This document shows, piece after piece, positions 1 through 48,048 of a stretch of 64,000 nt of DNA. The DNA comes from an uncultured Chloroflexia bacterium (GTDB lineage: Bacteria > Chloroflexota > Limnocylindria > QHBO01), in contig CAWDTM010000008.1 in NCBI GenBank assembly GCA_963805305.1, positions 628,620 to 692,619 on the forward strand, in the 5' to 3' direction. Every line of letters begins with the position of its first letter. Within the stretch, counting starts at the first letter, position 1. The notes under the pieces were generated by a model. It saw only the letters and a list, made by a program, of their open reading frames with translations. It was not told where the DNA came from and did not search any database. Position numbers and translations under genes: made by a program.

Positions 1-356
1 CTGGTAAAGGCGGCCTTGGCGGTTTCGACGATCTTGCCGAAGGCAGCATCATCCCGGACGGCGAGATCCGCGAGCACCTTGCGGTCGACGGCCACGCCTG
101 CGGTCTTGAGGCCCGCGATCAGGCGAGCGTAGGGCAGGCCGTGGGTGCGCGACGCGGCGTTGATACGCTGGATCCAGAGACGACGCATCTGCCGCTTCCG
201 GTTGCGCCGATCCCGGTAGGCATACACGAGGGCGTGGAAGAGCGCCTCGCGCGCGGGACGGACCAGCGTCGATCGCGTGCCGCGCCGACCCGAGGCCTGG
301 GCAAGGAGCCGCTTGTGGCGCTTGTGCGCGGGGACGCCGCGCTTGACTCGTGCCAT
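1..356 (-). CDS. rplT: 50S ribosomal protein L20 (partial; C-terminus runs off the window start)
   Basis: Reverse-strand translation from ATG at 356 reads [23 protein letters not shown]...[18 protein letters not shown], the L20 signature. Classic infC-rpmI-rplT order. Confidence 0.9.
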
Positions 357-364
357 TTAGGGAC

Positions 365-562
365 CTACTCGTACGGCATGAGGCGCTTCAGCTGGGCCTC
401 ATGCACCTTGCTCACGTTTGCCTTGCCCGCGTATCGACGCGTGCGACGGCTGGACTTGATCTCCAGGTGATGACCACGCCACGCCTTGGGCCGGACCCAC
501 TTGCCGGATCCGGTCTTCTTGAAGCGCTTGGCCGTCCCCTTGTGGGTCTTCATCTTTGGCAC
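365..562 (-). CDS. rpmI: 50S ribosomal protein L35
   Basis: 65-aa ORF MPKMKTHKGTAKRFKKTGSGK..., typical L35. Sits between infC and rplT. Confidence 0.9.
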   Translation of the reverse strand: MPKMKTHKGTAKRFKKTGSGKWVRPKAWRGHHLEIKSSRRTRRYAGKANVSKVHEAQLKRLMPYE

Positions 563-566
563 TGTG

Positions 567-1241
567 CTATTGCTCCACGGCTGGCGTTGATGGCTCTTCG
601 GGCGACGCCTGCTGCACGGGCGCCGACGGGGTCATCCCCTTCGCCGCCAGCGCCTCGCCAATCGTCCCGCCACTGCTCTCGGACGATTCGGCCGCCTCGC
701 CGTTCGCCTTTTCGCTCTTCTTCTCGGCGCGCTTGTCGAGCGGCGCCATGACGATGTACATGCTCCGTCCTTCGAGGAGCGGCTGGCGCTCGATGGCCCC
801 GCTCTCGGCGAGCATCTCCGCCGCGCGCTGGAGCAGATCACGCCCGAGGTTCGCGTGCGTCATCTCCCGTCCCCGAAACTGGACCGTCACCTTCACCCGG
901 TCCCCGTCGTCGAGGAACTCGGCCGCCCGGCGGGTCTTGGTCCGCAGGTCGTTGGTGTCGATCTTGACCCGGAGACGGATCTCCTTGAAGGTCTGAGACT
1001 TCTGCTTCTTCTTGGCTTCGCGGTCGCGCTTCTGCAGCTCGTACTTGTACTGACCGTAGTCGAGGATCCGGCAGACCGGCGGGGCCGCGGTGGGCGCCAC
1101 CTCCACGAGGTCGAGCCCCTTCTCCTGTGCCAGGGCAAACGCCTCGGCGGTTGGCATCACACCAAGCTGCTGCCCTTCGTCGTCAATGACCCGCACCTCG
1201 CGGATCCGGATCATTTCGTTGACTCTGAGGTCCCGTGCGAT
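567..1241 (-). CDS. infC: translation initiation factor IF-3
   Basis: The ORF track starts at ATG 1214 (MIRIREVRVIDDEGQQLG...PPVCRILDYG). Homology (RVNEMIRIREVRV vs E. coli RINGEIRAQEVRL) continues in-frame upstream to an ATC at 1239-1241, preceded by AAGGAG 10 nt upstream. IF-3 genes classically use rare start codons. Confidence 0.85.
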   Translation of the reverse strand: MARDLRVNEMIRIREVRVIDDEGQQLGVMPTAEAFALAQEKGLDLVEVAPTAAPPVCRILDYGQYKYELQKRDREAKKKQKSQTFKEIRLRVKIDTNDLRTKTRRAAEFLDDGDRVKVTVQFRGREMTHANLGRDLLQRAAEMLAESGAIERQPLLEGRSMYIVMAPLDKRAEKKSEKANGEAAESSESSGGTIGEALAAKGMTPSAPVQQASPEEPSTPAVEQ

Positions 1242-1382
1242 CTTCGTCCAGCTCCTTCAACAAACAGGCCACCGGCCGCTAGGGTCGGAGGCCTACATCC
1301 AACGCGAAAACGCCGCGAGACTATACCTCGGACCGGCGTGCTCAGTCAACGCGTCGCGACCGTGGACGGGACCGATGGCGCC

Positions 1383-1748
1383 CTAGGTCGGCCAGTCGAA
1401 GAAGACGGCCACCTGCCGTCCATCGGGATCTGCGACGCGGAAGGACCGGCTGCCCTCCCATCGGTCGCCGGATGGTGGCGCGACCAGCGCGAATCCGCGC
1501 TGACCGAGCTCCTGCGCCCAGCCGTCCACCTCTGCCGCGGTGTCGACCCGAAATCCGATCTGGATGCCGTCGCGGGTCGCGGTCTCGGCTCGCCGGAACG
1601 AGAGCTCGAACCCGCCCAGCTCCAGGTCCACCCCACCATCGTCGCCGGCGCGCAGACGAAAGCCAAAGGCATGCTCGTAGAACTCGGCGCAGCGCATCGG
1701 GTTCGTGGAACGGAGCGCCAGCTGGCCCACGCCGCGCATCTTCCTCAT
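1383..1748 (-). CDS. VOC/glyoxalase-bleomycin resistance family protein
   Basis: 121-aa ORF with a glyoxalase-like fold signature (FGFRL...GGFELSFRR...IGFRVD). Confidence 0.65.
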   Translation of the reverse strand: MRKMRGVGQLALRSTNPMRCAEFYEHAFGFRLRAGDDGGVDLELGGFELSFRRAETATRDGIQIGFRVDTAAEVDGWAQELGQRGFALVAPPSGDRWEGSRSFRVADPDGRQVAVFFDWPT

Positions 1749-1758
1749 GGGTGGTGGC

Positions 1759-3570
1759 TCAGTCCGCCGGCGCGTTGTCTTCGTACGGCCACAGCTCGCG
1801 TCGAGCGTTGCGGCCGGCCAGCTGCTCCACGAACTCGGCGAGGGGCACGCCCTGGCGCGAGCGGCCGGTGCGCAGCCGCGGGCTGACCGCTCCGGCCTCC
1901 TGGTCCCGGTCCCCCACCACCAGCATCACGGGGATCTGCTGCTCCTGCGCATCGCGCAGCTTTGCCTGCATCCGCTCCGAGCGATCATCGACCGCCGCGC
2001 GAATCCCCGCGGCGGCAAGGGCATCCCGGACGGAAGTCGCGTACTCGATATGCCGATCGGCGATGGGAATGACCACGGCCTGGACCGGGGCCAGCCAGAG
2101 CGGAAAGGCGCCCGCGAAATGTTCGACGATCACGCCGACGAAGCGCTCGAAGGTGCCGTAGATGGCGTAGTGGATCATCACCGGGCGCTCGAAGCCGCCC
2201 TCGCCGGTGCGGTATTCGAGGTCGAAGCGCTGGGGCAGCTGGTAGTCGAGCTGGACGGTGGCCATCTGCCATTCGCGTCCCAGCGCATCCTCGATGAAGA
2301 CGTCGATCTTCGGGGCATAGAAGGCCGCGCCACCGGGATCCATCGTGTACGCCAGCGCCTCGGCGTCGAGCGCCTCGCGCAGGCGCCCCTCCGCCATGTC
2401 CCAGAACTCGTCGGAGCCCAGCTTCTTGGCCGGTCGTGTGGCGAGTTTGAAGCGCGGCTGGAAGCCGAATGGCTCGTACTGGCGCAGGACGAGGGCGAGC
2501 GCGAGGCGCAGCTCGTCGGCGACCTGGTCGTCGCGGCAGAACACGTGGGAGTCGTCCTGCGTCAGCTGACGAACGCGGAACATGCCGGCGAGGGCGCCGG
2601 TTCGCTCCTTGCGGAAGAGGGTCGAGTAATCGGCGAAGCGCATGGGTAGATCGCGATAGGAGCGCGATCGCGTCTTGTAGACCAGGATCTCCTGGGGGCA
2701 GTTCATGGGCTTGAGGCCGGACGGATGGTCGGAGTCGTCCAGGATGAACATGTTGTCCTGGTACAGCTCCCAGTGGCCGGACTGCTCCCACAGCTCCCTG
2801 CGGACGAGGGACGGTGTCCGCACCTCGGCGAAGCCGCCCTCCGTGCGGACCTGCAGCGACCACGCTTCCAGGACGCGCCAGAGCGCCATCCCCTTGGGGT
2901 GCCAGAAGGGTGCCGCCGGCGACTCGGGATGGAAGGTGAACAGGTCGAGGTCACGTCCCAGTCGCCGGTGGTCGCGCGCCTTGGCCTGCTCGAGCCTCCA
3001 GAGGTACTGATCCAGCTCCTCCTGCGTCTCCCAGACCGTTCCGTAGATGCGCTGGAGCATTGGGCGGTTCTCGTCGCCGCGCCAGTACGCGGCGGCGCTG
3101 TTCAGGAGCTTGAAGGGACCCAGGCGTCCGGTCGAGGCCAGGTGCGGGCCGCGGCACAGGTCGCTGAAATCGCCGTGCCGGTAGAAGCTGATGATGCGCG
3201 CCTCCTCATCGGGAAGCTCGCGGACGATCTCGACCTTGAACGGCTGGGTCTCCGACTCGAGCCGGGCAAGCGCTGTGGCCCGGTCGAGCTCCGTGCGCTC
3301 GAAGGCGAGGTCCGCAGCCACCTGCTCGCCCATCCTGCCCTCGATCGCCTCCAGGTCGGCAGGGGTCAGCGGCCGGGGCAGGTCGAAGTCGTAGTAGAAG
3401 CCGTCCCTGATGGCCGGTCCGATGCCCAGCTTCGCGTCGGGAAACAGCCCGAGGACGGCGGACGCCATGATGTGCGCCGCGGAGTGCCGCATCGTGTCGA
3501 GCGGCTCGTGGGCGCCCGCATCGAGGAGCTCGTCCGCGGCGGAACGGATCTCGTCAGAGTCGATGGCCAT
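1759..3570 (-). CDS. thrS: threonine--tRNA ligase (apparently lacking the N-terminal TGS domain)
   Basis: 603-aa ORF with MRHSAAHIMA (editing-domain HxxxH) at residue ~27 and class II aaRS motifs. ATG at 3570 is only 48 nt downstream of the upstream gene's stop (3619). Confidence 0.9.
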   Translation of the reverse strand: MAIDSDEIRSAADELLDAGAHEPLDTMRHSAAHIMASAVLGLFPDAKLGIGPAIRDGFYYDFDLPRPLTPADLEAIEGRMGEQVAADLAFERTELDRATALARLESETQPFKVEIVRELPDEEARIISFYRHGDFSDLCRGPHLASTGRLGPFKLLNSAAAYWRGDENRPMLQRIYGTVWETQEELDQYLWRLEQAKARDHRRLGRDLDLFTFHPESPAAPFWHPKGMALWRVLEAWSLQVRTEGGFAEVRTPSLVRRELWEQSGHWELYQDNMFILDDSDHPSGLKPMNCPQEILVYKTRSRSYRDLPMRFADYSTLFRKERTGALAGMFRVRQLTQDDSHVFCRDDQVADELRLALALVLRQYEPFGFQPRFKLATRPAKKLGSDEFWDMAEGRLREALDAEALAYTMDPGGAAFYAPKIDVFIEDALGREWQMATVQLDYQLPQRFDLEYRTGEGGFERPVMIHYAIYGTFERFVGVIVEHFAGAFPLWLAPVQAVVIPIADRHIEYATSVRDALAAAGIRAAVDDRSERMQAKLRDAQEQQIPVMLVVGDRDQEAGAVSPRLRTGRSRQGVPLAEFVEQLAGRNARRELWPYEDNAPAD

Positions 3571-3618
3571 GGTGCCCGCAAGCGTAGCGCATCGGCCCCG
3601 TGGGCTCCGGCTGCCTCG

Positions 3619-4401
3619 TCAGCGTGGGGCGAGGGTCCCAGCGAAGACCTGCCAGGCCAGCGCGGACTTGGCCAGGAGCGACAACGCGATGTACACCGCC
3701 TCGCCGAAGAGGTAGTCGCGCCAGGGCCCCACGCGCCGGTACTGGAGCACCATGTTCACGGCAAAGCTGTTGAAGAACACGAAGAGCGACACGAAGATCG
3801 CGTAGACGAACGTCGGCGCGGCGACTTCGGACCCGGGGTTCCACAGGTAGATGCCGATGAGGACCCAGGGGACCGCCCCGGTCATCACGCCGAACCAGTA
3901 GCTCATCCAGTTCGGCCTGCCGGGCTGCTCGTAATGCTCCATAAGCAGGCCGAACAGAATCATGGCCGCGTTCACCCCGAAGATGGCGCCCAGTGCGGCG
4001 ACGTCGCTGATCCCCGGGAGCATGGCGATGAGCACGACCATCAGCGACGAGCTCAGGGCGTACTCGATCCAGCGGGCGTAGTTCCGGCCGTGGAGGAGGT
4101 TGGACCGATACCACCCGAAGATGCCGGGGCTGGCCACGATGAAATGGGCCGCCGCGGAGAGGAGGAGGAAGCCGGCGATGGCCGGGCCGAACGGCAGCTC
4201 GAACAGGGTGGCGTTGCGGACCAGGCCGGATCCCGGTGGTCCGTCCATGAAGGTGGCCGTTACCGGCAGGGCGAAGTCGTTGGCGAGGAGCAGGATGGCG
4301 ATCGCCTGGGCCAGGTGCAGGAAGCCCATGACGACGTTGTAGGCACGGAGGCGGATGAGGCGACGATCCTGCTGCGCCCCGGCGGCAATGGCCTGATTCA
4401 T
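3619..4401 (-). CDS. heliorhodopsin (retinal-binding 7TM, inverted topology family)
   Basis: The 260-aa ORF shares hallmark blocks with heliorhodopsin 48C12: ALANDFALP, NGPPG, RWIEYALSSS, FGVNAAMILFGLL, FVFFNSFA, VLQYRR. The helix-7 retinal lysine context SLLAKSALAWQVFAG is present. Seven hydrophobic helices. Confidence 0.85.
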   Translation of the reverse strand: MNQAIAAGAQQDRRLIRLRAYNVVMGFLHLAQAIAILLLANDFALPVTATFMDGPPGSGLVRNATLFELPFGPAIAGFLLLSAAAHFIVASPGIFGWYRSNLLHGRNYARWIEYALSSSLMVVLIAMLPGISDVAALGAIFGVNAAMILFGLLMEHYEQPGRPNWMSYWFGVMTGAVPWVLIGIYLWNPGSEVAAPTFVYAIFVSLFVFFNSFAVNMVLQYRRVGPWRDYLFGEAVYIALSLLAKSALAWQVFAGTLAPR

Positions 4402-4478
4402 GACTGCGATACGGTATCCCTGCGCGGGTGGATCAGGGAAGGGGTCCGGAGCGATCCACGCGCCCGGCGGTTCGCGCC

Positions 4479-4946
4479 CTACGGCCTCGGCGAGGGCGCA
4501 GGGTAGGTGACCTCTCGAACGAGCGCTCGGTCGATTGGGGCGGTCCCCTGGTCGAGCACCTCGATGCTGCCGTCGGTGTCGCGGCGTTCGAAGCGATAGT
4601 CGAGGATGACGCCCACTGACAGGTCCTCGATCCGGATCGTGAACGGGTACGGCGACGGATCGCAGGGCGGCGTGTCGCCTCCGCCGGTTCCACAGAAGAC
4701 GCGCTGCGGCCTATCGATGGATGCGGGGTTGGTCTGGACGAAGAGGCCGAACGACGCCGTATGCGCGGGCGGCTCGCCAAGGAACAGGTTGAACTGGGCG
4801 GTGGCGGGCCCGGTCCTCGATGCGGGTGGCGTCGAGGACGCGGGAGACGTGCTGGGCGATGACGAGGGAGCGAAGCCGCAGGCGGCGAGCATCAGGAGCC
4901 CGAGCACCAGGGAGCCGGCAGCAGCACCGCGGCGGCGCCGTCGCAT
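4479..4946 (-). CDS. putative secreted lipoprotein (hypothetical)
   Basis: N-terminal MRRRRRGAAAGSLVLGLLMLAACG: signal peptide plus lipobox LAAC. Start is 4 nt after the paaD stop. Confidence 0.5.
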   Translation of the reverse strand: MRRRRRGAAAGSLVLGLLMLAACGFAPSSSPSTSPASSTPPASRTGPATAQFNLFLGEPPAHTASFGLFVQTNPASIDRPQRVFCGTGGGDTPPCDPSPYPFTIRIEDLSVGVILDYRFERRDTDGSIEVLDQGTAPIDRALVREVTYPAPSPRP

Positions 4947-4950
4947 CGGC

Positions 4951-5466
4951 TCAGACCGCCTTGAACTGCTCGAATGGCTGATGGCAGGCGTCGCAGTGAT
5001 GGATCGAGCGGCAGAGCGTGGGGCCGAACGGGTTGTCCATCGTCGTGTTGCGCGAGCCGCAGTACGGGCACGGCGTGGTACCCAGCATGGTGACGAGGCC
5101 GCTCTGGGGCGGAACGAGCTCGGGTGGCGCGAAGCCGCTCGAGCGCAGCTTCTCGCGTCCCTCGGCGCTGATCCGGTCCGAGGTCCACGGCTCGGCGAAG
5201 CTGAGCTCGACGATGACCTCGTCGGCGAGCCGCAGGGCCGTCAGTCGCTCCCCCACCTGTGCGCGCATGACGTCGATCGCCGGACAGCCGACGAAGGTGG
5301 GCAGCAGCTCCACCCGCAGCCACTCTCCGCCGTCTGGCTTCTCCTCGAACGCGAAGCCGCGGATGACGCCCAGCTCGACGACGCTGATGGTCGGGATCTC
5401 CGGATCGGCGACCTCGTCGAGGGCAGCCCACACGACGGTGTCGCGCGGATCGCGCACCGCTACCAC
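4951..5466 (-). CDS. paaD: phenylacetate-CoA oxygenase subunit PaaD (PaaJ)
   Basis: 171 aa, DUF59/MIP18-like N-terminus and C-terminal cysteine cluster CPYCGS...CDAC, typical of PaaD. Confidence 0.8.
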   Translation of the reverse strand: MVAVRDPRDTVVWAALDEVADPEIPTISVVELGVIRGFAFEEKPDGGEWLRVELLPTFVGCPAIDVMRAQVGERLTALRLADEVIVELSFAEPWTSDRISAEGREKLRSSGFAPPELVPPQSGLVTMLGTTPCPYCGSRNTTMDNPFGPTLCRSIHHCDACHQPFEQFKAV

Positions 5467-6242
5467 GTCGCCTCCGGATCGGAGCGGGCCACCATCGTGA
5501 ACTCGCCATGCAGCCAGCGGAAGTCGTCCGTGCGACGGGTGCGACTGTCCGGCGGAGGCTCCAGGTCAGGGTCCGCAGCCGGCAGGCCAAGCGAGTGCAG
5601 CGTCTCCCCCACCATCGCGACCCAGCGGCGTCGGAGGGTCGCCATCGGCGCCGGCAGGATCGCGGCATCGGTCAGCGCCGCCTCGCCGATGAGGGGTGCG
5701 AAGATCGCCTGCGCATCGGGCCACAGCGTGTCGAGCGACTCGGACAGCCGCTGGCGCGCCGCGGTTCCGCCCTCGGCCAGCCGCTTCATCCAGGCCCCGA
5801 GGTGCATCAGGTGGTAGCGCTCTTCGCGCCGCATCTTTGCCGCGAGGCGCGCGAGCGGCTCATACGATGACGCGCTGAGCGCCTCCAGACGCACGGCATC
5901 GGCCGTTTCGTACAGGTAGCGGCGGGCGACGGTGAAGGCCCAGTCGGTCCGCGGATGGTTCAGCAGCGCGGCATGCCGATAGGCGTGCGCTTCGCGTCCG
6001 AACGCGATCCGGTCCGGGTCGTCGCCGGTCAGCTCGGCCAGGAGCTCGTAGAGTGCCTTGGCGTGGCCGATCTCGTCCTGGCTGATGGAGCTGGTGGCGA
6101 CATCCTCCTCGAGCATGGGCGCGATGCCGGTCCATTCGGAGTCCCAGAAGCCGATGACGAACTCGTCGTCGGCCACGCTCAGCAGCAGCTCGGCCAGCGC
6201 CTCGCGCGGCAGGGATGGGTCAGGGGCAGGCGCCGTCCTCAT
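5460..6242 (-). CDS. paaC: 1,2-phenylacetyl-CoA epoxidase subunit C (PaaC/PaaI)
   Basis: 260-aa ferritin-like ORF in paaABCD order. Overlaps its neighbours by a few nt. Confidence 0.75.
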   Translation of the reverse strand: MRTAPAPDPSLPREALAELLLSVADDEFVIGFWDSEWTGIAPMLEEDVATSSISQDEIGHAKALYELLAELTGDDPDRIAFGREAHAYRHAALLNHPRTDWAFTVARRYLYETADAVRLEALSASSYEPLARLAAKMRREERYHLMHLGAWMKRLAEGGTAARQRLSESLDTLWPDAQAIFAPLIGEAALTDAAILPAPMATLRRRWVAMVGETLHSLGLPAADPDLEPPPDSRTRRTDDFRWLHGEFTMVARSDPEATW

Positions 6243-6622
6243 GCCGGCTCCCCGACTGTCTCCGGCTCATCCTCGCCCGGCGCGGCGCCTGCGCGTGCCT
6301 TGGCTGCCTCGAGCTTGTGCTTGATGATGTAGCCGCCCGGGCGCTTGAAGGACCGATCGAATGGCGGCTTGAGCAGGTCCGGGTCGTCGAGCTCCGCGAT
6401 CTGGTCACGGTCAACCACCCAGAGCCGATGGCTCTCCTGGCGCCGCCCGTAGAACTCGCGCGCGTAGTGCAGCGCCAGCTCCTCGTCGGGTGCCCTGACG
6501 TTGCCGGAGTGGATCATGGGATCTCCCTCCGCCTCCTGGCGAAAGACCTCCCATACCCGATCGCCGCTCCCGGACTGCTGCTCCATGCGGGAAGGGTACC
6601 GCGCGGTCATGGCGGTCGCCAT
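6239..6622 (-). CDS. paaB: 1,2-phenylacetyl-CoA epoxidase subunit B (PaaB)
   Basis: WEVFRQEAEG...IHSGNVRAPDEELALHYAREFYGRR...LWVV matches PaaB. True start may be the internal Met at ~6586. Confidence 0.75.
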   Translation of the reverse strand: MATAMTARYPSRMEQQSGSGDRVWEVFRQEAEGDPMIHSGNVRAPDEELALHYAREFYGRRQESHRLWVVDRDQIAELDDPDLLKPPFDRSFKRPGGYIIKHKLEAAKARAGAAPGEDEPETVGEPA

Positions 6623-6668
6623 CCGGATGGGAAACGCTCGAGGTTGACCGGCGGAGGGAGCCGGCGGG

Positions 6669-7649
6669 TCAGGCGGCGGCGCCGGTTCCCGCGGGCGCCT
6701 GGCCCAGGACGGCGTCGCGTACCCACTGGGTCGCCGCGAAGCTCTCGCGGCGGAACGCCAGCCGCTCCTGGGAGCGCGGGCCGTGTCCGGTGACGACCGA
6801 TCGGAGCTCGTTCCAGTCCGGCTCGGTGTACTGCCAGCGGCCCATCGCCTCGTCGTAGCGCAGCGCCGGATCCGGGATGGTCAGGCCCAGCTCGCGAATG
6901 CGCGGCACGTAGATGGTCAGGAACTCCTGCCGCAGCTGCTCGTTGCCCTTGGCCTTGATCTTCCAGATCAGGTCGCGATCCGTCGCCGGGTCGGTTGGCG
7001 GGCCGTGCATCTGCATCAGGGGCCCCCACCATCGGTCCAGGGCGTCCTGGACCAGGGCGCGCTGGGCGGTCGAGCCGTTCATCATGGTCAGGACGACATC
7101 GCGCCCGTGCATGATGTGGACGCTCTCCTCCCAGCAGATCTTCTTCATGGTGCGCGCGTACGGCGCGTACGAAGAGTCGCGGAGCGCCTGCTGGCTGACG
7201 ATGGCCGCGGCGTCCACGAGCCAGGCGATGATGCCGACATCGGCCCACGACTCGGTCGGGTAGTGGAAGACGTTGTGGAACTTCGTCTTGCCGGCCATCA
7301 GGTCGGCGAGCATCTGCTCGCGCGGCTTCCCCAGGTCCTCCGCGACGCGGTACAGCAGCTGGGCATGGCCCACTTCGTCCTGGATCTTGCTGGTCAGCGC
7401 CAGCTTGCGCTTGAGCGTGGGTGCGCGAAGGATCCATTCGCGCTCCGGGAGCACGCCCATCAGCTCGGAGTTGGCGTGCATCTCCACGAACTTGAGGACC
7501 GCGGCCCGGTAGTCATCGGGCATGAAGTCGTCCGCCTCGACCCGACCCCCACCCGAGACGCGGGCGTAGAAGGCTTCGGCGCGGGCGGAGTCGTCGATGG
7601 TCGCGGTCACGAGGGCACCTCCAACGGGTCTGCTCGTAGGGTAGCGCAT
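6669..7649 (-). CDS. paaA: 1,2-phenylacetyl-CoA epoxidase catalytic subunit A (PaaA)
   Basis: 326-aa diiron oxygenase-like ORF (EMHANSELMG...QDEVGHAQLLY...EESVHIMHG). Confidence 0.85.
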   Translation of the reverse strand: MRYPTSRPVGGALVTATIDDSARAEAFYARVSGGGRVEADDFMPDDYRAAVLKFVEMHANSELMGVLPEREWILRAPTLKRKLALTSKIQDEVGHAQLLYRVAEDLGKPREQMLADLMAGKTKFHNVFHYPTESWADVGIIAWLVDAAAIVSQQALRDSSYAPYARTMKKICWEESVHIMHGRDVVLTMMNGSTAQRALVQDALDRWWGPLMQMHGPPTDPATDRDLIWKIKAKGNEQLRQEFLTIYVPRIRELGLTIPDPALRYDEAMGRWQYTEPDWNELRSVVTGHGPRSQERLAFRRESFAATQWVRDAVLGQAPAGTGAAA

Positions 7650-7665
7650 GCCCCGCGCCGGTGCC

Positions 7666-8040
7666 TCAGCGCGGGATCAGCTCCAGCGTCGTGGAGAGCA
7701 CGCCGTCGGCAACCATCGCCGGCGTCGCCGAATCGCCCGCGTACTTGTCGAGGAAGCCGCGACTGGCCGCCTCGATCCGCTCCTCGTCGGTGGCCACCTG
7801 GGCCGTCGCGGCAATGCGCCGGCTTCCGAGCTGCAGCGTGACGGACGAGCGTGAGAGGGCCTCGCGGTACCAGCGAGCCGTGGGGCCGCGGTATGACCGG
7901 ATCAGTGCGCGGCCCCTGTCGTCCACGACCACCCAGATGATGGTGCTGTGGACCGTGCCCGCGTCCGACGCGGTCTCGATGCGGATCTCGGGCATCTCGC
8001 GCAGCAGGGCGCGCAGATCGGTCGGGAATCGATCGGGCAT
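7666..8040 (-). CDS. hypothetical protein (DUF2255 / PNPOx-like split-barrel, tentative)
   Basis: 124-aa ORF, co-directional and 16 nt upstream of paaA. No firm motif recognised. Confidence 0.45.
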   Translation of the reverse strand: MPDRFPTDLRALLREMPEIRIETASDAGTVHSTIIWVVVDDRGRALIRSYRGPTARWYREALSRSSVTLQLGSRRIAATAQVATDEERIEAASRGFLDKYAGDSATPAMVADGVLSTTLELIPR

Positions 8041-8096
8041 GCGGGAAGCGTAGCAGCCCGGCGCGGATCCACCGGCGTGGCCTGGTTGCGCAGTTA

Positions 8097-8349
8097 GTCG
8101 TGCGGGGCGCGACGCAGGGGCCGATGCCAGCGCTGGTAGGCGCCGTCCGATGGCTCGCCCAGGGCGACCCGGTCACCCTCGGCACCGGCGAGGGCGCTGA
8201 GGGGGACGTAGAGGTCCACCGGCACGAGCCCGGAGGTGCGAACGAGGAGATAGTCGGCGAAGACGGCGTCCACGCGCCCGAGGAGACGCCCCTCGGAACC
8301 GAAGACGCTGCTGCCCACCGTGACGGCGGGTATCGGACGGGCGTTCATG
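8097..8349 (-). CDS. PRC-barrel domain protein (hypothetical)
   Basis: Internal Met of the longer ORF: MNARPIPAVTVGSSVFGSEGRLLGRVDAVFADYLLVRTSG...VPLSAL resembles PRC-barrel proteins. Its ATG overlaps the DagK stop (ATGA). Confidence 0.45.
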
Positions 8350-9316
8350 CCGGGGGTACCGTAGCCGATCCACCGGTGCCCGGCACCGAGGGCGGCGCCG
8401 CCACGTCCAGGGCAGCGTGCACGAGCTCGACGCGAACGGGGATGGACCCGAACGGCTCCCCGTCGAGGTGCACCCGGGTCTGGTCGTCCCCCTCGAGGAT
8501 CACGGAGCGCGCACGGACGAACTCGACCGCGGGATGCGAGACGTGGGCCCCCCGATACATGCCGGGCAGCTGGCGGATCGCCTCGAGGCGGCTGATGTTG
8601 CCAACGATGCACAGGTCCAGCCAGCCGTCCGTGACGGTCGCCGCGGGACAGATCTGCATGCCCCCTCCGTAGTACATGCCGTTCGCGAACGCGACGAAGA
8701 GGGCGGTTCGCTCGAGACGCCGCTCGCCGTCGGGGGTCTGGAGCACCAGGCGCAGCGTCTGGTTACGGAACCGCTGGAGTTCCCAGAGGGTCGAAAGGAG
8801 GTAGCCCAGCCGCCCGCGCTGCCACCGGGAGCGGTGGGCCATGGCCGCCGCGACCTGGGCGTCGAATCCGGCGCCGCCGGCGGCCGCGAAGTACCGCCGG
8901 GTGCCGGCAGGCCCTTCCCCGCGGGTGGCCAGGCCCACATCGATTCGGAGCAGGTCGGCCCCCAGTGCCATGGTCAGGGCATCCTCGCCGTGATGCGGGA
9001 GACCGAGGCTGCGGGCCAGGTCGTTCCCGCTTCCCCCGGCCAGGATGCCCAGCGAAAGGTTCGAACCGGCCTCCATGATCCCGTTCACGATCTCCTGGAC
9101 CGTACCGTCGCCCCCGACCGCCACGACGCGGTCATGCCCTGCTGCGGCCGCGTGGAGGGCGATCTCGCGCGCGTGATCGGGTGCCTCTGTCTCCACGAGC
9201 CGGGCCGCCGGCGCGGTGGCGTCCAGCCGCCGCCGCAACCACGGTTCAAGGTGGAGCGCCCGGCCGTCACCCGCGACCGGGTTCACGATCAGGAGTGGAG
9301 CGGACGACGTCGGCAT
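8345..9316 (-). CDS. diacylglycerol kinase family lipid kinase (YegS/DagK-like)
   Basis: 323 aa with LLIVNPVAGDG...VVAVGGDGTVQEIVNG...GILAGGSGNDLARSLG, the DAGK catalytic-domain motifs. Confidence 0.8.
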   Translation of the reverse strand: MPTSSAPLLIVNPVAGDGRALHLEPWLRRRLDATAPAARLVETEAPDHAREIALHAAAAGHDRVVAVGGDGTVQEIVNGIMEAGSNLSLGILAGGSGNDLARSLGLPHHGEDALTMALGADLLRIDVGLATRGEGPAGTRRYFAAAGGAGFDAQVAAAMAHRSRWQRGRLGYLLSTLWELQRFRNQTLRLVLQTPDGERRLERTALFVAFANGMYYGGGMQICPAATVTDGWLDLCIVGNISRLEAIRQLPGMYRGAHVSHPAVEFVRARSVILEGDDQTRVHLDGEPFGSIPVRVELVHAALDVAAPPSVPGTGGSATVPPA

Positions 9317-9480
9317 GCCGCAGATTGTGCACGGCGGCGGGTGCGCGGCGAGCCCCGCTCGGGACGTTCATCCCGGTGGGTCAGGGTCGGATGTCCACGA
9401 ACGGGACCGGCAGGTCATTCGTTGGAACCGATGGAGCACCGAGCAAGACCCGCCCTCCAGCAAGAGGACATGACCAGCAC

Positions 9481-9882
9481 ATGCATCGTCTTCGAATCTA
9501 CAGCGTGGTCGCCGCGGTGGCGTCACTCGCGCTCACAGCAGGCATCACCACCGCGCACCTGATGCCGGCGGCATCCGATCCGGGCCTCACCACGGCGCGC
9601 CAGGCATCGGGACAGGACGTGCCGATGGGCGTCGACGGCTCGTTCACGGACACCACGGCCACCGGGAATACCGCTGACGCGCCCGCCGACACGCACGGAT
9701 ACACCGTGTCGCAGGCGGCGCAGGGCCCGACGCCGAGCGACGGCGGCTGGGCGAACCACGGCGCATACGTCAGTTCCATCGCGACGGGCTGGGGTCAGCA
9801 GCACGCGGCTGCCCATCAGAGCAACGCCCCGAGCCCTGAGGAGCTGGCGCAGGCAACGGACGGGCTGTCACACCGTCCCTGA
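9481..9882 (+). CDS. hypothetical secreted protein
   Basis: Start taken at internal Met MHRLRIYSVVAAVASLALTAGITTAHLMPAAS (signal peptide). The sequence upstream in the long ORF looks non-coding. Confidence 0.4.
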   Translation: MHRLRIYSVVAAVASLALTAGITTAHLMPAASDPGLTTARQASGQDVPMGVDGSFTDTTATGNTADAPADTHGYTVSQAAQGPTPSDGGWANHGAYVSSIATGWGQQHAAAHQSNAPSPEELAQATDGLSHRP

Positions 9883-9892
9883 GCGTCCCTGC

Positions 9893-11460
9893 CTAGGAGA
9901 TCTGCAGACTGACCTGGTGATAGCCGGTCGCTCCGTTGGGCGCCGGGTCGTGCGGGGTGGCAAGCTGCAGCTCGCCCGTCCCGTCGGTCGCGCGCACCCG
10001 GAGCGTGTGGCGGCCTGAGGTGGCCGCCCACCGGTAGACCCACTGCACCCACGTGCTGCCCGAGATGGGCGTTGCCAGATCGGCCGCCTGCCACGCTCCG
10101 TCGTCGACCTGCACCTCGACCTTGCCGATGCCGCGGTCCGGGGCCCAGGCCACACCCGCGACCGGAACGGTGCCGGCGCGCGGAGACGAGCCAGCGCGCG
10201 GCGTGTCGATGCGCGATGCGGTCTTGATGGGTCCCAGCTTCGACCACCCGAGCGGAACCCAGTAGGCATCGAAGGCCTCGAGCGTCGTCAGCTCGATGTT
10301 CGTCAGCCACTTCGTGGCCGACACGTAGCCGTAGAGCCCGGGAACGATGAGCCGCGCCGGGAATCCGTGCGCGGCAGGAAGCGGATCCCCGTTCATGGCA
10401 AGCGCAATGAGCGCTTCCCGGTCCGAGTCGGTCAGCCACGCCGTGGGGAACCCGCTCGTCCAGCCGTCGAACGCCCTCCCGACGATCTGCGTCGCGTCGG
10501 CATGCACCCCGGCGCGATCGAGCACCTCCCGCAGGCGCACTCCCCGCCAGAGGGCGTTGCCCACGAGGTCACCGCCAACCTCGTTCGAGACGCACTGGAT
10601 CGTGACGTACTCCTCGTGCAGCGGCATGGCGCGCAGCTCGTCGTACGTGAAGCTCAGCTCGTGGTCGACCATGCCGGTCACGGTGAGGTGCCACGTCGAT
10701 GCATCAACATGAGGCGTGAGGAGCTGGGTGTCGATTCGGTAGAAGTCATTGTTGGGCGTGACCAGGGGCGAGATCCCCGGTACGTCGAGCCGGGCGGCGG
10801 CTGGCACCGGCGGGGCAGTCTCGGCCGGCGCGGGCACGTCCCCGAAGGCGACGGCGGAGGAGCCTCGGTTGGTCAGGAGAACGCGGCCGAGCAGCCCGGC
10901 AGCGAGGGCACCGGCGCCGATCCCCATGGTCGTGCCCAGGAAGCGGCGGCGTGACCAGTCCGGCATCTCGGCAACGGGCGCACGGGCAGCCCGCCGCGAC
11001 GCCAACCTGAGCAGGAAGGAGAGCACCTGCCAGGCGACGATCACCGAGACGGCCAGCGACCCGACCGCGAGAATGCCATCGACCAGCGGGTCCCGGAATG
11101 CCGCGACGAGGGCCACCAGGGCCACCACGCCAAAGCCGCCCACCGCCAGGCGGAACCGGAGGTCGCTCCGGTCCTCGTCCCCGCGTCCTGAGCGGGCGAG
11201 CATGCCCAGTCCGGCGGAGATCGCCAACGCCACGAGCAGGACCGCCAGGCTGAGGACCAGCTTGTCGTTCTTCCCCAGCAACCCAACCAGGGCCTGCTCC
11301 GCGCCGGGCGGCTGAAGGGCGATGACGAGCGACCCCATCTCCGCGACCGGGGACGGCGCACCGTCAAAGAGTCCCGCCAGCAGCTCGGCGGCGCCCAGGG
11401 CGGCGCCTCCGGCGACGAGCCCGGCCATGGCTCCGGCGAGACGGGAGGGTCGATGCATGG
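9893..11460 (-). CDS. molybdopterin-dependent oxidoreductase (sulfite-oxidase/YedY family) with N-terminal membrane domain
   Basis: C-terminal Moco-binding region (QCVSNEVGG...GVRLREVLDRAGV...PGLYGYVSATKWLTNIEL) after several TM helices and an internal SRRRFLGTTMG Tat-like motif. Start moved to MHRPSRLAGAMAG (11460). Confidence 0.7.
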
Positions 11461-11511: not shown

Positions 11512-12051
11512 ATGCGGCGCGCGTATCGTCAGTGGATGCCGCCACGCATCGTTCTCGCCCCCGGCGCATCCGGGTCGGTCGCCGCTCTTGCCCCGCAGCT
11601 CCGTGGCCTCCGGGCGCGCGGCCTGGAGGCGCGCGCGATCACGTTGCCGCGCGGCCTCGCCCAACGCGCCGTCCCCGTCTATCGCGCGGCCGTGCTCGAG
11701 CCGGACGCCACCATCATCGGTGGCCATTCCTTCGGTGGGCGGGTGGCCAGCCTGCTCGCCGCGGATGAGCCGGTGGCCGGGCTGCTCCTCCTCTCGTATC
11801 CGCTTCACCGACCGGGCCACCCGGAGGGATGGGACGAGCGCACGGCGCACTGGGATCGCATCGGCTGTCCGGTGCTGCTGCTCTCGGGGGAATCGGATCC
11901 CTTCGCGCGAATCGACCTGCTTCGGAAGGCCGCGGCACGCCTCCGCGATGCACAGCTGATCACCTATCCGCGGGTACGCCACGGTCTGTCACCGGTGCTG
12001 GGGGACGCGATGGACGCAATTGCAGCGTGGGCCTCTGCGTTCGACGGCTAG
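11512..12051 (+). CDS. alpha/beta hydrolase fold protein
   Basis: 179 aa with GGHSFGGRVASLLAA (GxSxG nucleophile elbow). Confidence 0.55.
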   Translation: MRRAYRQWMPPRIVLAPGASGSVAALAPQLRGLRARGLEARAITLPRGLAQRAVPVYRAAVLEPDATIIGGHSFGGRVASLLAADEPVAGLLLLSYPLHRPGHPEGWDERTAHWDRIGCPVLLLSGESDPFARIDLLRKAAARLRDAQLITYPRVRHGLSPVLGDAMDAIAAWASAFDG

Positions 12052-12103
12052 CCCCCACGCCCGCGGTGCGCCGGTTCGGTCCCACCCTCTACACTCGGAC
12101 GGC

Positions 12104-15100
12104 ATGACGACGGCCGGTTCGATCCCCTGTCCGAGCTGTGGGAGGTCGGTCCCTGATCGGTACCGGCGCTGCGGCTACTGCGCCACGGTCCTCGATCCCG
12201 CTCGCGCGCCGGGGGAGATTCGCCGGACGGCGACCATCGTCACCTCTGACCTGAAGGGCTCCACCAGCCTTGGCGAGCGCCTCGATCCCGAGTCCCTCCG
12301 CGAGCTGCTCACCCGCTACTTCGACGAGATGCGCCTGGTCTTCGAATCGTATGGCGGCACGATCGAGAAGATCATCGGCGATGCCATCGTGGCTGCCTTC
12401 GGCCTGCCGACCCGTCGGGACGACGATCCGCTGCGGGCGGTCGCGGCGGCCGCCGAGAGCCTGCGGACGCTGAGCGCGCTCAACGAGCAGTTCGAGCGCG
12501 CCTACGGGGTGCGGCTCGAGAATCGGACCGGCATCGCGAGCGGCGAGGTGGTCGTCGGGGAGGCGAGCGAAGGGCAGCACGTGCTGACCGGGGACACCGT
12601 CCGGATCGCGACGGTCATGGAGCAGAATTCGCCTCCGATGGAGGTGCTGCTGGCGGCCTCGACCTACGAGCTCGTCGCCGACCAGGTCGAGGTGGAGTCC
12701 CTGCCGGGTGTCGCCGTCAAGGGTGTCGCGGCTCCGCTCGACGGCTATCGGCTGGTCTCCCTCTCGAGCGAGGCCGAGGAACACCTCCGGGCCGGTGCTG
12801 CTCAGACCGCCACGGACGCTCGAATCTGCCCCAACTGTGGCGAGGATAACCTGCCCGCCTTCACGACCTGCGGTACCTGCGGCGGCGCGCTCGATCGAGC
12901 CGCCCCCGCCGCCGAACGACGCAAGACCGTCACGCTCGTCTTCGCCGATCCACGCCCCACCACGACGACCGGCGAGCGGCCCAGTCCCGAGGCGCTCCGG
13001 GCCGTGATGTCAAGCTACTTCGAAACGGTCCATCCGATCCTCGAGCGCCACGGGGGCACGGTCGAGAAGTTCATCGGCGACGCGATGATGGCCGTCTTCG
13101 GACTGCCGGTCCTCCACGAGGATGACGCCCTGCGCGCCACGCGGGCCGCGCTCGAGATGCAGCAGGCCCTGCCGGATCTGAACGCCGCGCTCGAGGCAGC
13201 GTGGGGCGTCACGCTCGAGACCCACATCGGCGTCAACACCGGCGAAGTCATCGCGGGAGATGCCAGCCTCGGGCAGCGCCTGGTCACCGGAGACGCCGTC
13301 AACACCGCCGCGCGGCTCGAGCAGGCCGCGGGGGCCCGAGAGGTGCTTCTCGGTGGTCTCACCTTTCGCCTCGCACGCGACCAGATCGAGGCCGACGAGG
13401 TCGAGCCGCTCACCCTGAAGGGCAAGGCCGAGCCGGTTCCGGCCTACCGCCTGCGATCGGTGGCCACCGTGGACCAGGCCGTCCGGCGTCGCAACGAAGG
13501 GCCGATGGTCGGCCGCGAGAAGGAGCTGGCGGCGTTGACGGAGCTGTATGCCCGCGCCGTGGACCAGGGCTCCTGCGAGCTGGCCGCGGTTGTGGGTGAC
13601 GCGGGAGTCGGCAAATCACGCCTCATCGCCGAGTTCACCTCCGGGACGGCTCCCGCCGCGCATGTCATTCGGGGCAAATGCCTGCCGTACGGTGACGGCA
13701 TCACGTTCTGGCCTCTGCGCGAGGCTGCGCGCGACGCCGCCGGCATCGGCGTCGACGAAGGCGCCGCATCGGCGCTCGAGAAGCTGCGGGCCACGATCGA
13801 GACCGACGAGGTCGTGGACCGCCTCGCGTCGGTGATGGGCCTGTCAACGACGCCGTACCCGGTCCCGGAGATCCAGTGGGGTGCCCGGAAGTTCCTGGAG
13901 CACCTGGGCGGCCGCAGGCCGGTGGTCATGATCGTCGAGGACATCCACTGGGCCGAGACCACGTTCCTCGAGCTCCTGCAGAGCCTCGTGACGAGCGTCG
14001 AGCATGCCCCGGTCCTGCTCCTGTGCACCAGCCGCCACGAGCTCCTCGACCGCGATCCGGATTGGGGGCTGGCCGATGGCGCCGTCCGGCTCGTCCTGCG
14101 GCCGCTGACCGACTCCGATGCCGGTCTGGTGGTGGCTGGTCTGCTGGGCGGCACCGGCCTTCCGGAAGGAATCCGGCAGCGCATCGTGGATGCCTCGGCC
14201 GGCAATCCCCTGTTCGTCGAGCAGCTTCTGTCCATGCTCATCGACAACGGCTCTCTGCGCCAGACCGACGGGCGCTGGGAGCAGGTCCGCGACCTCGCCG
14301 CGCTCGATGTCCCGCCCACCATCCAGGCCCTGCTGGCCGCCCGCCTCGACCTGCTGGAGGCGCCGGAGCGGGCTGTGATCGAGCCCGCATCGGTCATCGG
14401 CCAGACCTTCGCGCAGGCAGCCGTGTCCGAGCTGGTCAGGTCGGACCAGTCACCCGACGTGCCGGAGCGCCTGCTGGCGATCGCGCGCCGTGAGCTCATC
14501 GCCTCCAGCCCCGGCACCGCCGGTGACGAGGCGGCCTACCGGTTCGCGCACATCCTGGTGCGCGATGCCGCGTACAACGGTCTCCTCAAGCGCGCGCGTG
14601 CCGAATTCCACGAGCGCTTCGTGGACTGGGCCGAGGAGCTCAACCGCCGCCAGGGCAGGGCCGGTCACGAGTTCGAGGAGATCCACGGCTATCACCTCGA
14701 ACAGGCGTACCGCTATCTCAGCGATCTGGGCACCATCGACGAGCACGCACGGCGTGTGGGCATTCGCGCCTCCGAGAAGCTGGCCAGCGCGGGGCGCCGC
14801 GCCCAGGCTCGTGGAGACATGCCGGCGGCGGTCAGCCTGCTCCGCCGTGCAGCCGCCACACGGTCGCGCCTTGACCCGGGTCGCCTGTCGCTCCTCCCGG
14901 ACCTGGGAGAGGCGCTCATGGAAGCCGGCGAGTTTGACGATGCGGACAACATCCTTCGCGAGGCAGCGGCTGCCGGCGCCGAGACCAAGAACGAAACCCT
15001 CAGCGCCCAGGCGAACCTGGTTCGGCTGCTGGTCCAGTCCTATTCGGGCGAGAGCGACGACTGGAGCGGACGCGTTGCCGAGGAGGTGGAGCGCGCACTT

Positions 15101-47200: not shown

Positions 47201-47684
47201 CGCCACCAGCGGGGCCGACGCCGACACCGTCCTCGGGGAGCGGCACCCGCTGCGCATCCTCCTCGCGGAGGACAACGCGGTGAACCAGAAGCTTGCCCTC
47301 CGGCTCCTGGCCCAGCTCGGCTACGCAGCCCCGGTGGCAGGGGACGGGCTGCAGGCCATTTCGGCGCTCGAAGGCGGCGACTTCGACGTTGTCCTCATGG
47401 ACGTCCAGATGCCGGAGCTCGATGGGCTGGAGGCGACCCGCCGCATCCGCGCCCGCTGGCCGGACCGTCCGCTGCGGATCGTGGCCATGACCGCCAACGC
47501 CATGGCCGGCGACCGCGAGGCGTGCCTCGCGGCGGGCATGGACGACTACATCAGCAAGCCCATTCGCGTCGCGGAGCTCACCGCGGCGCTCGAGCGGGTG
47601 CCGGGCACCGGTCCGACGATTGGCCGGCATCGGACCCGCAAGCAGTCCTCCAGGACCAACGGCAAGAGGAACGCACGTGCCTGA
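41292..47684 (+). CDS. multi-GAF (about 9-10 domains) hybrid sensor histidine kinase with two receiver domains
   Basis: Repeating units: GAF domains separated by conserved coiled-coil linkers (ENARLF(D/G)ETKRLLAET(D/E)...AELA(V/I)IN). Then HisKA ([20 protein letters not shown]), HATPase_c ([13 protein letters not shown]) and two REC domains ([13 protein letters not shown]; [13 protein letters not shown]). 2130 aa. Confidence 0.85.
41886..45560 (+). repeat. intragenic diverged tandem repeat array (~525-bp period, about 8 units) encoding linker+GAF modules
   Basis: Linker-coding blocks recur at ~41886, 42381, 42900, 43425, 43950, 44475, 44990 and 45480. Adjacent units share up to ~85% nucleotide identity by eye. 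Confidence 0.55.
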
Positions 47685-48048
47685 CCAAACACCGGTGCTC
47701 GACGAGTCCGTCCTGGCCGAGCTGCAGACCTCGACGGGAGACGACGCGGCCTTCGTCCGCGAGCTGATCGACACCTTCCTGGCCGATGTCTCGGTCCAGC
47801 TGGACGGCATCGCCGCAGCAGTGCAGGCCAATGATCCCGCTGCCCTCGTCCGGCCGGCGCACACCCTCAAGTCCGGGAGCGCCACCGTGGGTGCCATGCG
47901 GCTGGCCGCGGTTGCGCGCGAGCTGGAGTTTGCGGGCAGATCCGGTGCCCTGGACGCCGGCGCGCAGCGCGGCCTGGAGACCGCCCGAGCAGAAGCCGAT
48001 GCGGCACGCCAGGCCATGGCGGCCTGGCTGGACCGGGAGGTCGGCTGA
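47677..48048 (+). CDS. Hpt (histidine phosphotransfer) domain protein
   Basis: [13 protein letters not shown] (Hpt HxxKG motif). GTG start overlaps the kinase stop. Its stop overlaps the next gene's ATG. Confidence 0.7.

Follow-up and report, generated by a model that had tools for sequence, protein, structure and literature searches.

A heliorhodopsin gene with its own promoter-like element, inserted between paaABCD and thrS in a Limnocylindria-type Chloroflexota genome

The 64-kb stretch of DNA analyzed here (64,000 nucleotides of contig CAWDTM010000008.1 from an uncultured Chloroflexia bacterium; the window) carries a heliorhodopsin gene (HeR; 3619..4401, minus strand, 260 aa) within a one-strand string that reads DUF2255, paaA, paaB, paaC, paaD, a lipoprotein-like open reading frame (ORF), HeR, thrS, infC, rpmI and rplT, all on the minus strand. 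HeR came to lie between paaABCD and thrS through an insertion specific to this lineage, and the gene is dispensable there. HeR has a promoter-like element of its own, which accompanies the gene into other contexts, classes and phyla and resembles the promoters of RpoE/ChrR-type extracytoplasmic function (ECF) sigma factors. We consider it probable, with room left for doubt, that HeR is a separate transcription unit, brought in by insertion in this lineage and induced within a light and oxidative-stress response, and that its product acts as a retinal light sensor together with a partner that we leave unnamed.

The heliorhodopsin and its upstream element

An earlier, sequence-only reading of the window called this ORF an unambiguous heliorhodopsin, and the Pfam, NCBIfam and PDB matches agree with that call. 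The family search suggested at the time yields full-length matches above the cut-offs, both to Pfam PF18761 Heliorhodopsin (E 2.2e-99, 332 bits with a cut-off of 26.7, profile positions 1-242/242) and to the NCBIfam equivalog NF038020 (330 bits, cut-off 100). The solved heliorhodopsins are all matched as well, 48C12 (6su3) with E 5e-78 and TaHeR with E 2e-61. Global alignment to 48C12 gives 54% identity over 244 aligned residues. Lys245 corresponds to K241 of 48C12 in both the phmmer and the global alignments and is invariant across 25 relatives, placing the helix 7 lysine at the Schiff-base position, as the reading had proposed. Glu113 superimposes on the helix 3 counter-ion E107, His29 and His86 correspond to H23 and H80, and Ser241 is a further key residue. 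Of 30 functional residues named for 48C12 (PMC7049168), 29 are identical in HeR. They cover the Schiff-base cavity (H23, H80, N101, Y108, S76, S111, S237, R104, E149, E230 and others), the Pro172 bulge and the retinal pocket. The sole change, Q213M (Gln213 to Met217), is a frequent heliorhodopsin variant (PMC7049168). Among the sequence blocks quoted earlier, SLLAKSALAW, RWIEYALSSS and FVFFNSFA are present; ALANDFALP and NGPPG are the 48C12 spellings and do not occur as such in the window protein, which has LLANDFALP and DGPPG.

The topology check that had been suggested gives a charge bias. Lys and Arg residues number 11 in the N-terminus and loops 2-3, 4-5 and 6-7, and 2 in loops 1-2, 3-4 and 5-6 and the C-terminus. 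This 11:2 ratio is as expected for the inverted topology, with a predicted cytoplasmic N-terminus. HeR has more than 7,700 homologs, the closest of which (83-89% identity) come from metagenome-assembled genomes (MAGs) labeled 'uncultured Chloroflexia' and Ca. Limnocylindria. The genomes with the closest HeRs belong to the phylum Chloroflexota, in keeping with the monoderm-host distribution rule (PMC8612252); the syntenic loci that place the host of the window there are 84-90% identical. In all these respects the predicted protein conforms to the heliorhodopsin family, within which it is well conserved and unexceptional.

Directly upstream lies the promoter-like element TGATCC-N16-CGTA (4410..4435, minus strand; TGATCC at 4435-4430, CGTA at 4413-4410), whose CGTA is separated from the HeR ATG by 8 nt. 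The window holds this single match, where 0.28 would be expected. For comparison we used the 80 species-level genomes with the closest HeRs, chosen from over 590 that matched in the species collection, taken with 10-kb flanks that were searched with the window proteins; 79 of these loci (numbered with the prefix L) are non-redundant. In the alignment of upstream regions the GATCC and CGTA blocks are exactly 16 nt apart, whether paaD or the lipoprotein gene precedes HeR. The element stays in register in 8 orthologous loci, and CGTA lies 8-11 nt from the ATG in 9 loci. Because the blocks are 94% identical in pairwise comparison at a fixed spacing and the spacer only 32%, the pattern reads as the footprint of -35/-10 recognition. 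Strict GATCC-N16-CGTA matches occur 12 times in the 79 loci (1.18 Mb), and in 8 of the 12 a HeR start follows after 8-11 nt. If one mismatch is tolerated, 11/80 loci carry the element in the 140 nt upstream of the HeR core versus 0.25 expected from its rate in the remainder of the same loci, an enrichment of ~45-fold. The loci gained in this way are Acidimicrobiia (L025 and L054, TCATCC) and Dehalococcoidia (L049, TGATCG). Among the eight strict cases is L013, whose HeR is not near paa or thrS. In L004/L006 the element falls within lipoprotein coding sequence, at its 3' end, and elsewhere it follows paaD, so that it travels with HeR whatever gene lies upstream. Neither dyad symmetry nor a conserved fold is apparent in it. 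No Shine-Dalgarno sequence precedes HeR, and the start codon is at the site where the transcript is predicted to begin, implying a leaderless mRNA.

The window element is a perfect match to RpoE/ChrR-type (ECF11) promoters in its -35 (TGATCC), 16-nt spacer and -10 (CGTA), the consensus being proteobacterial. The consensus from chromatin immunoprecipitation sequencing of P. syringae PSPTO_1043, an RpoE/ChrR homolog, is 'TGATCCnnnnnnnnnnnnnnnnCGTAnnnn' (PMC5507510), and S. oneidensis RpoE2 promoters with mapped starts have TGATCC and CGTA(A/T)T (PMC4336711). Both motifs are described as resembling the R. sphaeroides RpoE-dependent promoter (PMC5507510, PMC4336711). A CGT -10 and spacers of 14-17 nt are general features of ECF promoters (PMC5758882). 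Sigma factors of the RpoE/ChrR type control the singlet-oxygen or photo-oxidative stress response (PMC6852236), and their regulons contain the photolyase gene phrB, cfa-like methylases, an amine-oxidase-like flavoprotein, a short-chain dehydrogenase/reductase (SDR), ybgA and a glyoxalase (PMC5507510, PMC4336711, PMC6852236). The candidate promoters examined in P. syringae include those of a bacteriophytochrome operon, which carries the motif, and of phrB (PMC5507510).

One match lies before a different gene. In the Limnocylindria MAG of locus L081, a perfect TGATCC-N16-CGTA (2948-2973) precedes, by 26 nt, the gene of a ClpC-like AAA+ chaperone (3000-5525), a further possible target of this sigma factor.

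Probable transcription units and history of the junction

The sequence-only reading had HeR co-transcribed with thrS-infC-rpmI-rplT and, upstream, with the paa genes. The relatives do not bear this out, as HeR, thrS and infC each have their own conserved promoter-like element, and ~9.5 kb of other genes separate HeR from thrS in L001/L006. The 48-nt HeR-thrS spacer (3571..3618, minus strand) holds a proximal element of thrS, the invariant GCGCTACGCTT (3580..3590, minus strand), whose -10-like TACGCT (3586-3581) is 10 nt before the thrS ATG. In every aligned genome (7 loci) the block GCGCTAC(G/C)CTT ends 6-9 nt before this ATG. The same block precedes thrS in the HeR-less loci L085 and L088 and for this reason is assigned to thrS; it is likely the promoter of thrS itself, giving a leaderless or very short-leader mRNA. 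The core TAC(G/C)CT fits TAnnnT, which is sharply position-specific in 124 upstream regions of the clade, where its last base tends to be 6-7 nt (and 10 nt) away from the start codon, a qualitative result since the orthologs are non-independent. This geometry is that of leaderless mRNAs. A leaderless-type -10, TACGCT (8052-8047, minus strand), also lies 6 nt before the DUF2255 ATG, and neither thrS nor DUF2255 has a Shine-Dalgarno sequence. An alternative view of the thrS block, as an anticodon-like operator hairpin, was set aside in favor of the -10 element, the pairing being different between genomes. More widely, TAnnnT at 6-7 nt before starts and missing Shine-Dalgarno sequences suggest that many mRNAs of this Limnocylindria-type lineage are leaderless.

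For infC, a sigma-70 promoter TTGACT-18-TATAGT (1349-1320) is followed by a conserved leader of ~105 nt (together 1215..1349, minus strand); TTGAC-N18-TATAGT and the leader are invariant or highly conserved in all relatives. In L088 a CTG stands in place of the infC ATG, a hint of a non-canonical autoregulatory start codon. An Rfam scan of positions 1-9000 with E up to 1 returned no T-box, thrS operator or L20 leader, and a chance lncRNA match was its one hit. The thrS element, the infC promoter and the HeR element speak against reading the string as an obligatory operon. It is best described as at least four predicted units: DUF2255-paaABCD(-lipoprotein), HeR, thrS-glyoxalase and infC-rpmI-rplT.

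The gene order DAGK-DUF2255-paaABCD-HeR-thrS-glyoxalase-...-infC-rpmI-rplT-pheST is found on one strand in L004, L005, L008, L009, L016 and L018, and partly in L053. Across the syntenic loci HeR is 69-88% and threonyl-tRNA synthetase (ThrRS) 77-90% identical to the window proteins, and HeR and thrS are 40-65 nt apart in each of the seven genomes. The ~9.5 kb between HeR and thrS in L001/L006 hold an Opp-like ATP-binding cassette (ABC) cluster, a LuxR-type regulator and other genes. A second scan, seeded with ThrRS in metagenomes, recovered five close relatives (L085-L089). In the HeR-less L085 and L088, thrS directly follows paaD with gaps of 208 and 275 nt, L086 has ABC genes at the paaD|thrS junction in place of HeR, and L087 and L089 have no HeR upstream of thrS. 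The adjacency of HeR and thrS, for which conservation in relatives had been an open point, is accordingly kept in seven genomes, loosened to 9.5 kb in L001/L006, and missing where HeR is absent (L085, L087, L088) or elsewhere (L013).

In a neighbor-joining tree of ThrRS the HeR-less L088, L089 and L086 are basal, and L085 and L087 are nested among HeR-bearing genomes. HeR reads as inserted because relatives without it have paaD and thrS adjoining and the HeR-less state is basal on this tree; the term 'inserted' in the sequence-only reading is thereby upheld. The junction is a variable slot, or insertion hot spot, which in other relatives holds the lipoprotein gene, the ABC cluster or nothing. 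In the simplest history, paaD|thrS is ancestral, HeR was gained once there and later lost twice, and the lipoprotein gene and the ABC cluster were inserted too. We note that the ABC cluster is of the Opp-like peptide type and on the opposite strand both in L001/L006 (10925-14629, with HeR in L006) and in L086 (3059-5703, without HeR).

A stress-response reading and its rivals

Heliorhodopsin genes of sister Chloroflexota lie in a recurrent cluster, as found in a 6-kb census of HeR neighbors by Pfam and NCBIfam annotation. In L011 (3202-9222), L026 (3191-9598), L027 (1-8788) and L036 (131-9917) the cluster comprises a CarH/LitR-like B12 photoreceptor regulator, an ECF sigma factor, an amine oxidase, DUF1365, a cfa-like methylase, an SDR and SRPBCC; L027 adds a YbgA/DUF1722 gene, and L035 (12194-14716) has CarH and a photolyase next to HeR. 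These genes are homologs of the proteobacterial sigmaE-ChrR core regulon. The ECF sigma factor adjoins HeR in L011/L026, and a 365-aa ORF without a family match is downstream of the sigma gene. For the L026 sigma factor, R. sphaeroides sigmaE (2q1z) and M. tuberculosis SigK are tied as the best PDB matches. The cluster agrees with photolyase, MerR and SDR as published classes of HeR neighbors (PMC11109279). A motif match in L011 was considered as a promoter of the cfa-like gene; it falls within the coding part of that gene, has no counterpart in L026 and is taken as chance.

Under the explanation that we favor, HeR would be a seven-helix retinal protein with a cytoplasmic N-terminus, retinal on Lys245 and a counter-ion at Glu113. 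Precedent in the family suggests that it would sense light without pumping, a long-lived photointermediate modulating a partner protein. The gene would have been acquired once, at the paaABCD/thrS junction of this Limnocylindria-type lineage. Oxidative stress generated by light would release an ECF sigma factor, which would act at TGATCC-N16-CGTA to produce the leaderless HeR mRNA, and the protein would then enter the membrane and sense green light as part of a photoprotective response. The thrS-glyoxalase and infC-rpmI-rplT units would run from their own promoters, making their adjacency to HeR positional and not functional. No partner can be named from the context, because the evidence points to separate transcription units.

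Several points weigh against this explanation. We infer the promoter function of the HeR element only from its conservation and its resemblance to known promoters. The match to the ECF11 sequence is plain; the sigma factor itself we infer. ECF11 systems are described mainly in Proteobacteria, and no ECF sigma or ChrR-like gene is found among the annotated genes of the window, where part of the ORFs were scanned. The element is not found before the homologs of sigmaE-regulon genes (cfa, amine oxidase, phrB) in L011, L026, L027, L035 and L036, which makes a regulon shared by the HeR element and the sister-cluster genes a supposition. No terminator-like site or hairpin follows the lipoprotein gene or HeR (z-scores of -1.7 to +1.7 for both spacers in 6 genomes), which makes read-through from lipoprotein to HeR and from HeR to thrS possible, though it is not indicated. 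The order paaD-HeR-thrS is kept over 69-88% HeR and 77-90% ThrRS identity, for which selection for co-expression is another conceivable explanation. Finally, thrS is the most frequent neighbor family in the 6-kb census, at 12/79 loci in two phyla.

This last point bears on a different explanation, in which HeR is functionally coupled to ThrRS and the translation cluster, either by read-through that passes a light or stress input to thrS-glyoxalase or by HeR binding and modulating ThrRS. Besides the frequency of thrS, the short spacer without a terminator in the seven syntenic genomes is in its favor, as are the precedents of heliorhodopsins that regulate a neighbor's product (PMC9529153, PMC9769723, PMC11109279). 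Its best argument is that a separate HeR clade in a second phylum, Thermoleophilia and other Actinomycetota (L048, L050, L057, L060, L062, L070), also has HeR between thrS and infC, in the order thrS-...-marR-HeR-nudix-...-infC-rpmI-rplT-pheST, with ThrRS 46-51% identical to that of the window and, in L070, 3 nt from the thrS stop to the HeR start. However, the thrS-HeR distance in Thermoleophilia is usually 1-4 kb of variable genes, and HeR pairs there with marR and nudix; in both phyla HeR occupies a variable region beside a conserved core cluster. The window-type and Thermoleophilia HeRs separate on the HeR tree, leaving two independent clades only. With 47 context groups among the 80 loci, the probability that at least 1 of the ~46 others has thrS within 6 kb by chance is ~0.14, and the cross-phylum linkage, striking at first sight, is retained solely as part of this rival. 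Within the window clade, HeR-less relatives have an identical proximal element before thrS, HeR is dispensable at the junction (L085, L087, L088), it lies 9.5 kb from thrS in L006, and the promoter-bearing HeR of L013 is away from thrS. A thrS gene without a Shine-Dalgarno sequence is also more in line with a leaderless mRNA than with a cistron inside an operon. Coupling to ThrRS is, in our estimate, rather unlikely.

HeR might also close a DUF2255-paaABCD-(lipoprotein)-HeR operon, or be a partner of the extracellular lipoprotein, the upstream element then being the site of a regulator or an RNA-level element. HeR always follows paaD or paaD-lipoprotein by 30-100 nt on the same strand, the lipoprotein stop overlaps the HeR ATG in L004/L006, the lipoprotein gene has no terminator after it, and the leaderless-type -10 before DUF2255 makes one long transcript conceivable. 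Against these stand the two short blocks at a fixed 16 nt over a free spacer, a -35/-10 signature without dyad or fold, and their association with HeR in place of the upstream gene, seen in L004/L006 versus the others. Furthermore, paaABCD occurs without HeR in L085, L086 and L088, HeR and its element occur without paa in L013, and beyond the window the lipoprotein occurs in the four closest genomes only. We regard this arrangement as unlikely; a functional tie of HeR to ThrRS or to the paa and lipoprotein genes is thus possible but less likely than a role in the stress response. It is likewise improbable that adjacency and motif have no regulatory meaning, as they would if a horizontally acquired HeR were neutrally retained behind a housekeeping promoter and the ECF11 match were coincidental. 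For coincidence speak the shortness of the ECF11 consensus, which specifies 10 bases, and two further points: no cognate sigma factor was identified in the annotated part of the window, and HeR contexts are very diverse, with 47 groups in 80 loci. Coincidence does not sit well with the ~45-fold enrichment upstream of HeR in several classes and two phyla, or with the exact 8-11 nt register to the ATG, and the TAnnnT that serves as the housekeeping -10 of the clade is missing from the HeR element.

A bolder version of the favored stress-response explanation can be formulated. Sigma/anti-sigma operons are usually transcribed from the promoter of their own pathway. HeR could be an integral, autoregulated part of an ECF-sigma photo-oxidative stress pathway in monoderms, serving as its membrane light sensor and feeding the light signal to the anti-sigma factor in positive feedback. 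In the same way, the promoter of HeR would be one that belongs to the pathway, of RpoE/ChrR or SigK type. We hold this whole proposal to be quite doubtful. If true, it would give heliorhodopsins a defined signaling output and explain their scattered gene neighborhoods.

The function of heliorhodopsins is still open, and most inferences about it are drawn from gene neighborhoods. The present locus illustrates how a tidy co-directional string can mislead, as relatives split it into at least four predicted transcription units with HeR as a dispensable insert. It also offers a new regulatory lead, a promoter-like element of the singlet-oxygen-sigma kind before HeR in several Chloroflexota classes and in Acidimicrobiia. 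If the stress-response explanation is true, HeR expression would be under photo-oxidative stress control, and the promoter would lend support to what Bulzu et al. have proposed, namely that heliorhodopsins act in mitigating light-induced oxidative stress.

Neighboring genes and comparison with known systems

The intergenic distances given in the sequence-only reading are exact: 48 nt separate the HeR stop codon from the start of thrS, and 77 nt (4402-4478) lie between the lipoprotein gene and HeR. Its co-directional string is also correct in strand, except that a glyoxalase-family gene between thrS and infC had been left out. The thrS gene (1759..3570, minus strand; TIGR00418 640 bits, Pfam domains) encodes a threonine-tRNA ligase of 603 aa that lacks the N-terminal TGS domain, as compared with the 680-730-aa Thermoleophilia enzymes. 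The glyoxalase/VOC-family gene (1383..1748, minus strand; assigned by Pfam and relatives) starts 10 nt past thrS, and in relatives, HeR-less ones included, this small gene is always ~10-50 nt after thrS. It is followed by infC (567-1214), rpmI (365-562) and rplT (1-356, running off the window), all on the minus strand. The thrS to infC gap is ~150-250 nt in many metagenomic relatives.

Upstream, the DUF2255-paaA-paaB-paaC-paaD block (4951..8052, minus strand) is identified by Pfam and NCBIfam. PaaA, PaaC and PaaD score above their NCBIfam equivalog cut-offs (390 vs 280, 206 vs 133 and 148 vs 108); PaaB is below its own (56 vs 85) and passes the Pfam cut-off. No gene for PaaE, the reductase of the phenylacetyl-CoA 1,2-epoxidase to which these subunits would belong, is present in the paaABCD neighborhood. 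The lipoprotein-like ORF (4479..4946, minus strand, 155 aa), 4 nt after paaD, has a signal peptide with the lipobox LAAC, a Ser/Pro/Thr-rich linker and a ~100-aa beta-sandwich domain with 2 conserved Cys residues in the homolog alignment. It has no Pfam or NCBIfam family match, and only 3 homologs were found among 5.8 billion proteins. The AlphaFold2 model (predicted local distance difference test score, pLDDT, of 71) is a predicted seven-stranded beta-sandwich with a weak match to the CBM20-like (starch-binding) fold. The ORF is limited to the four closest genomes and the window (L004-L006 at 9418-10004) and is absent from L008, L009, L016 and L018.

Among the annotated genes of the window there are none for retinal or carotenoid biosynthesis, photolyase or glutamine synthetase. 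Further along, the window encodes a 2130-aa hybrid histidine kinase with nine GAF and two receiver domains (41292-47684), followed by a response-regulator/adenylate-cyclase fusion (48048-49133), and two more large cyclase proteins (12020-16021 and 54381-55802).

The census of HeR loci revealed other recurrent neighbors. A marR-HeR-nudix trio, with marR overlapping the HeR start, is found in L048, L050, L057, L059 and L060 (~9400-11400) and in L070 (6875-9817). A fused NmrA-like NAD(P)-binding/DUF2867 protein of ~480 aa is an immediate HeR neighbor in 8 loci (L021, L027, L028, L036, L059, L065, L066, L076) of Dehalococcoidia, Acidimicrobiia and Thermoleophilia. DegV is the +1 gene of HeR in Dehalococcoidia L073, L075 and L078 and the +2 gene in L083.

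The genes downstream of the window HeR have the same content, order and orientation as the classical bacterial thrS-infC-rpmI-rplT(-pheST) cluster. They differ from it in that the glyoxalase gene, with other genes in L016/L018, parts thrS from infC, and that infC has its own promoter and leader. The sequence-only reading had described the context of HeR as unusual, and it is indeed not among the neighbor classes of two published surveys, neither of which lists thrS (PMC8612252, PMC11109279). No paper that links a heliorhodopsin with threonyl-tRNA synthetase, or with Limnocylindria, was found in the literature searched. HeR belongs to the same family as AbHeR, TfHeR and OcHeR, which are paired with glutamine synthetase (PMC9529153), photolyase (PMC9769723) and the OmrDE ABC transporter (PMC11109279), respectively, and which each regulate the product of the neighboring gene. 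The sequence-only reading was prompted by this notion that neighboring genes point to the partner. Unlike in those systems, none of the ten published frequent neighbor classes adjoins the window HeR.

In its residues, HeR resembles 48C12 (PDB 6SU3/6UH3) and TaHeR (6IS6), with the Schiff-base Lys, the Glu counter-ion and the His23/His80 pair conserved. As in 48C12, the Ser76/Ser111/Ser237 triad, Arg104-Glu149-Glu230-Tyr226, the Pro172 bulge and Ser242-Gln26-Trp246 are also retained. It differs in having Met217 for Gln213, and its host is a high-GC, soil, Limnocylindria-type member of the Chloroflexota and not one of the freshwater Actinobacteria or archaea.

With respect to regulation, published RpoE/ChrR systems differ in that the target here would be a heliorhodopsin; the literature searched contained no paper connecting heliorhodopsins with ChrR, an ECF sigma factor or singlet oxygen. 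The hosts of the element also differ from those proteobacterial systems, being monoderm Chloroflexota and Acidimicrobiia. The same -35 TGATCC, 16-nt spacer and -10 CGTA found at promoters of R. sphaeroides sigmaE, S. oneidensis RpoE2 and P. syringae PSPTO_1043 stand before HeR.

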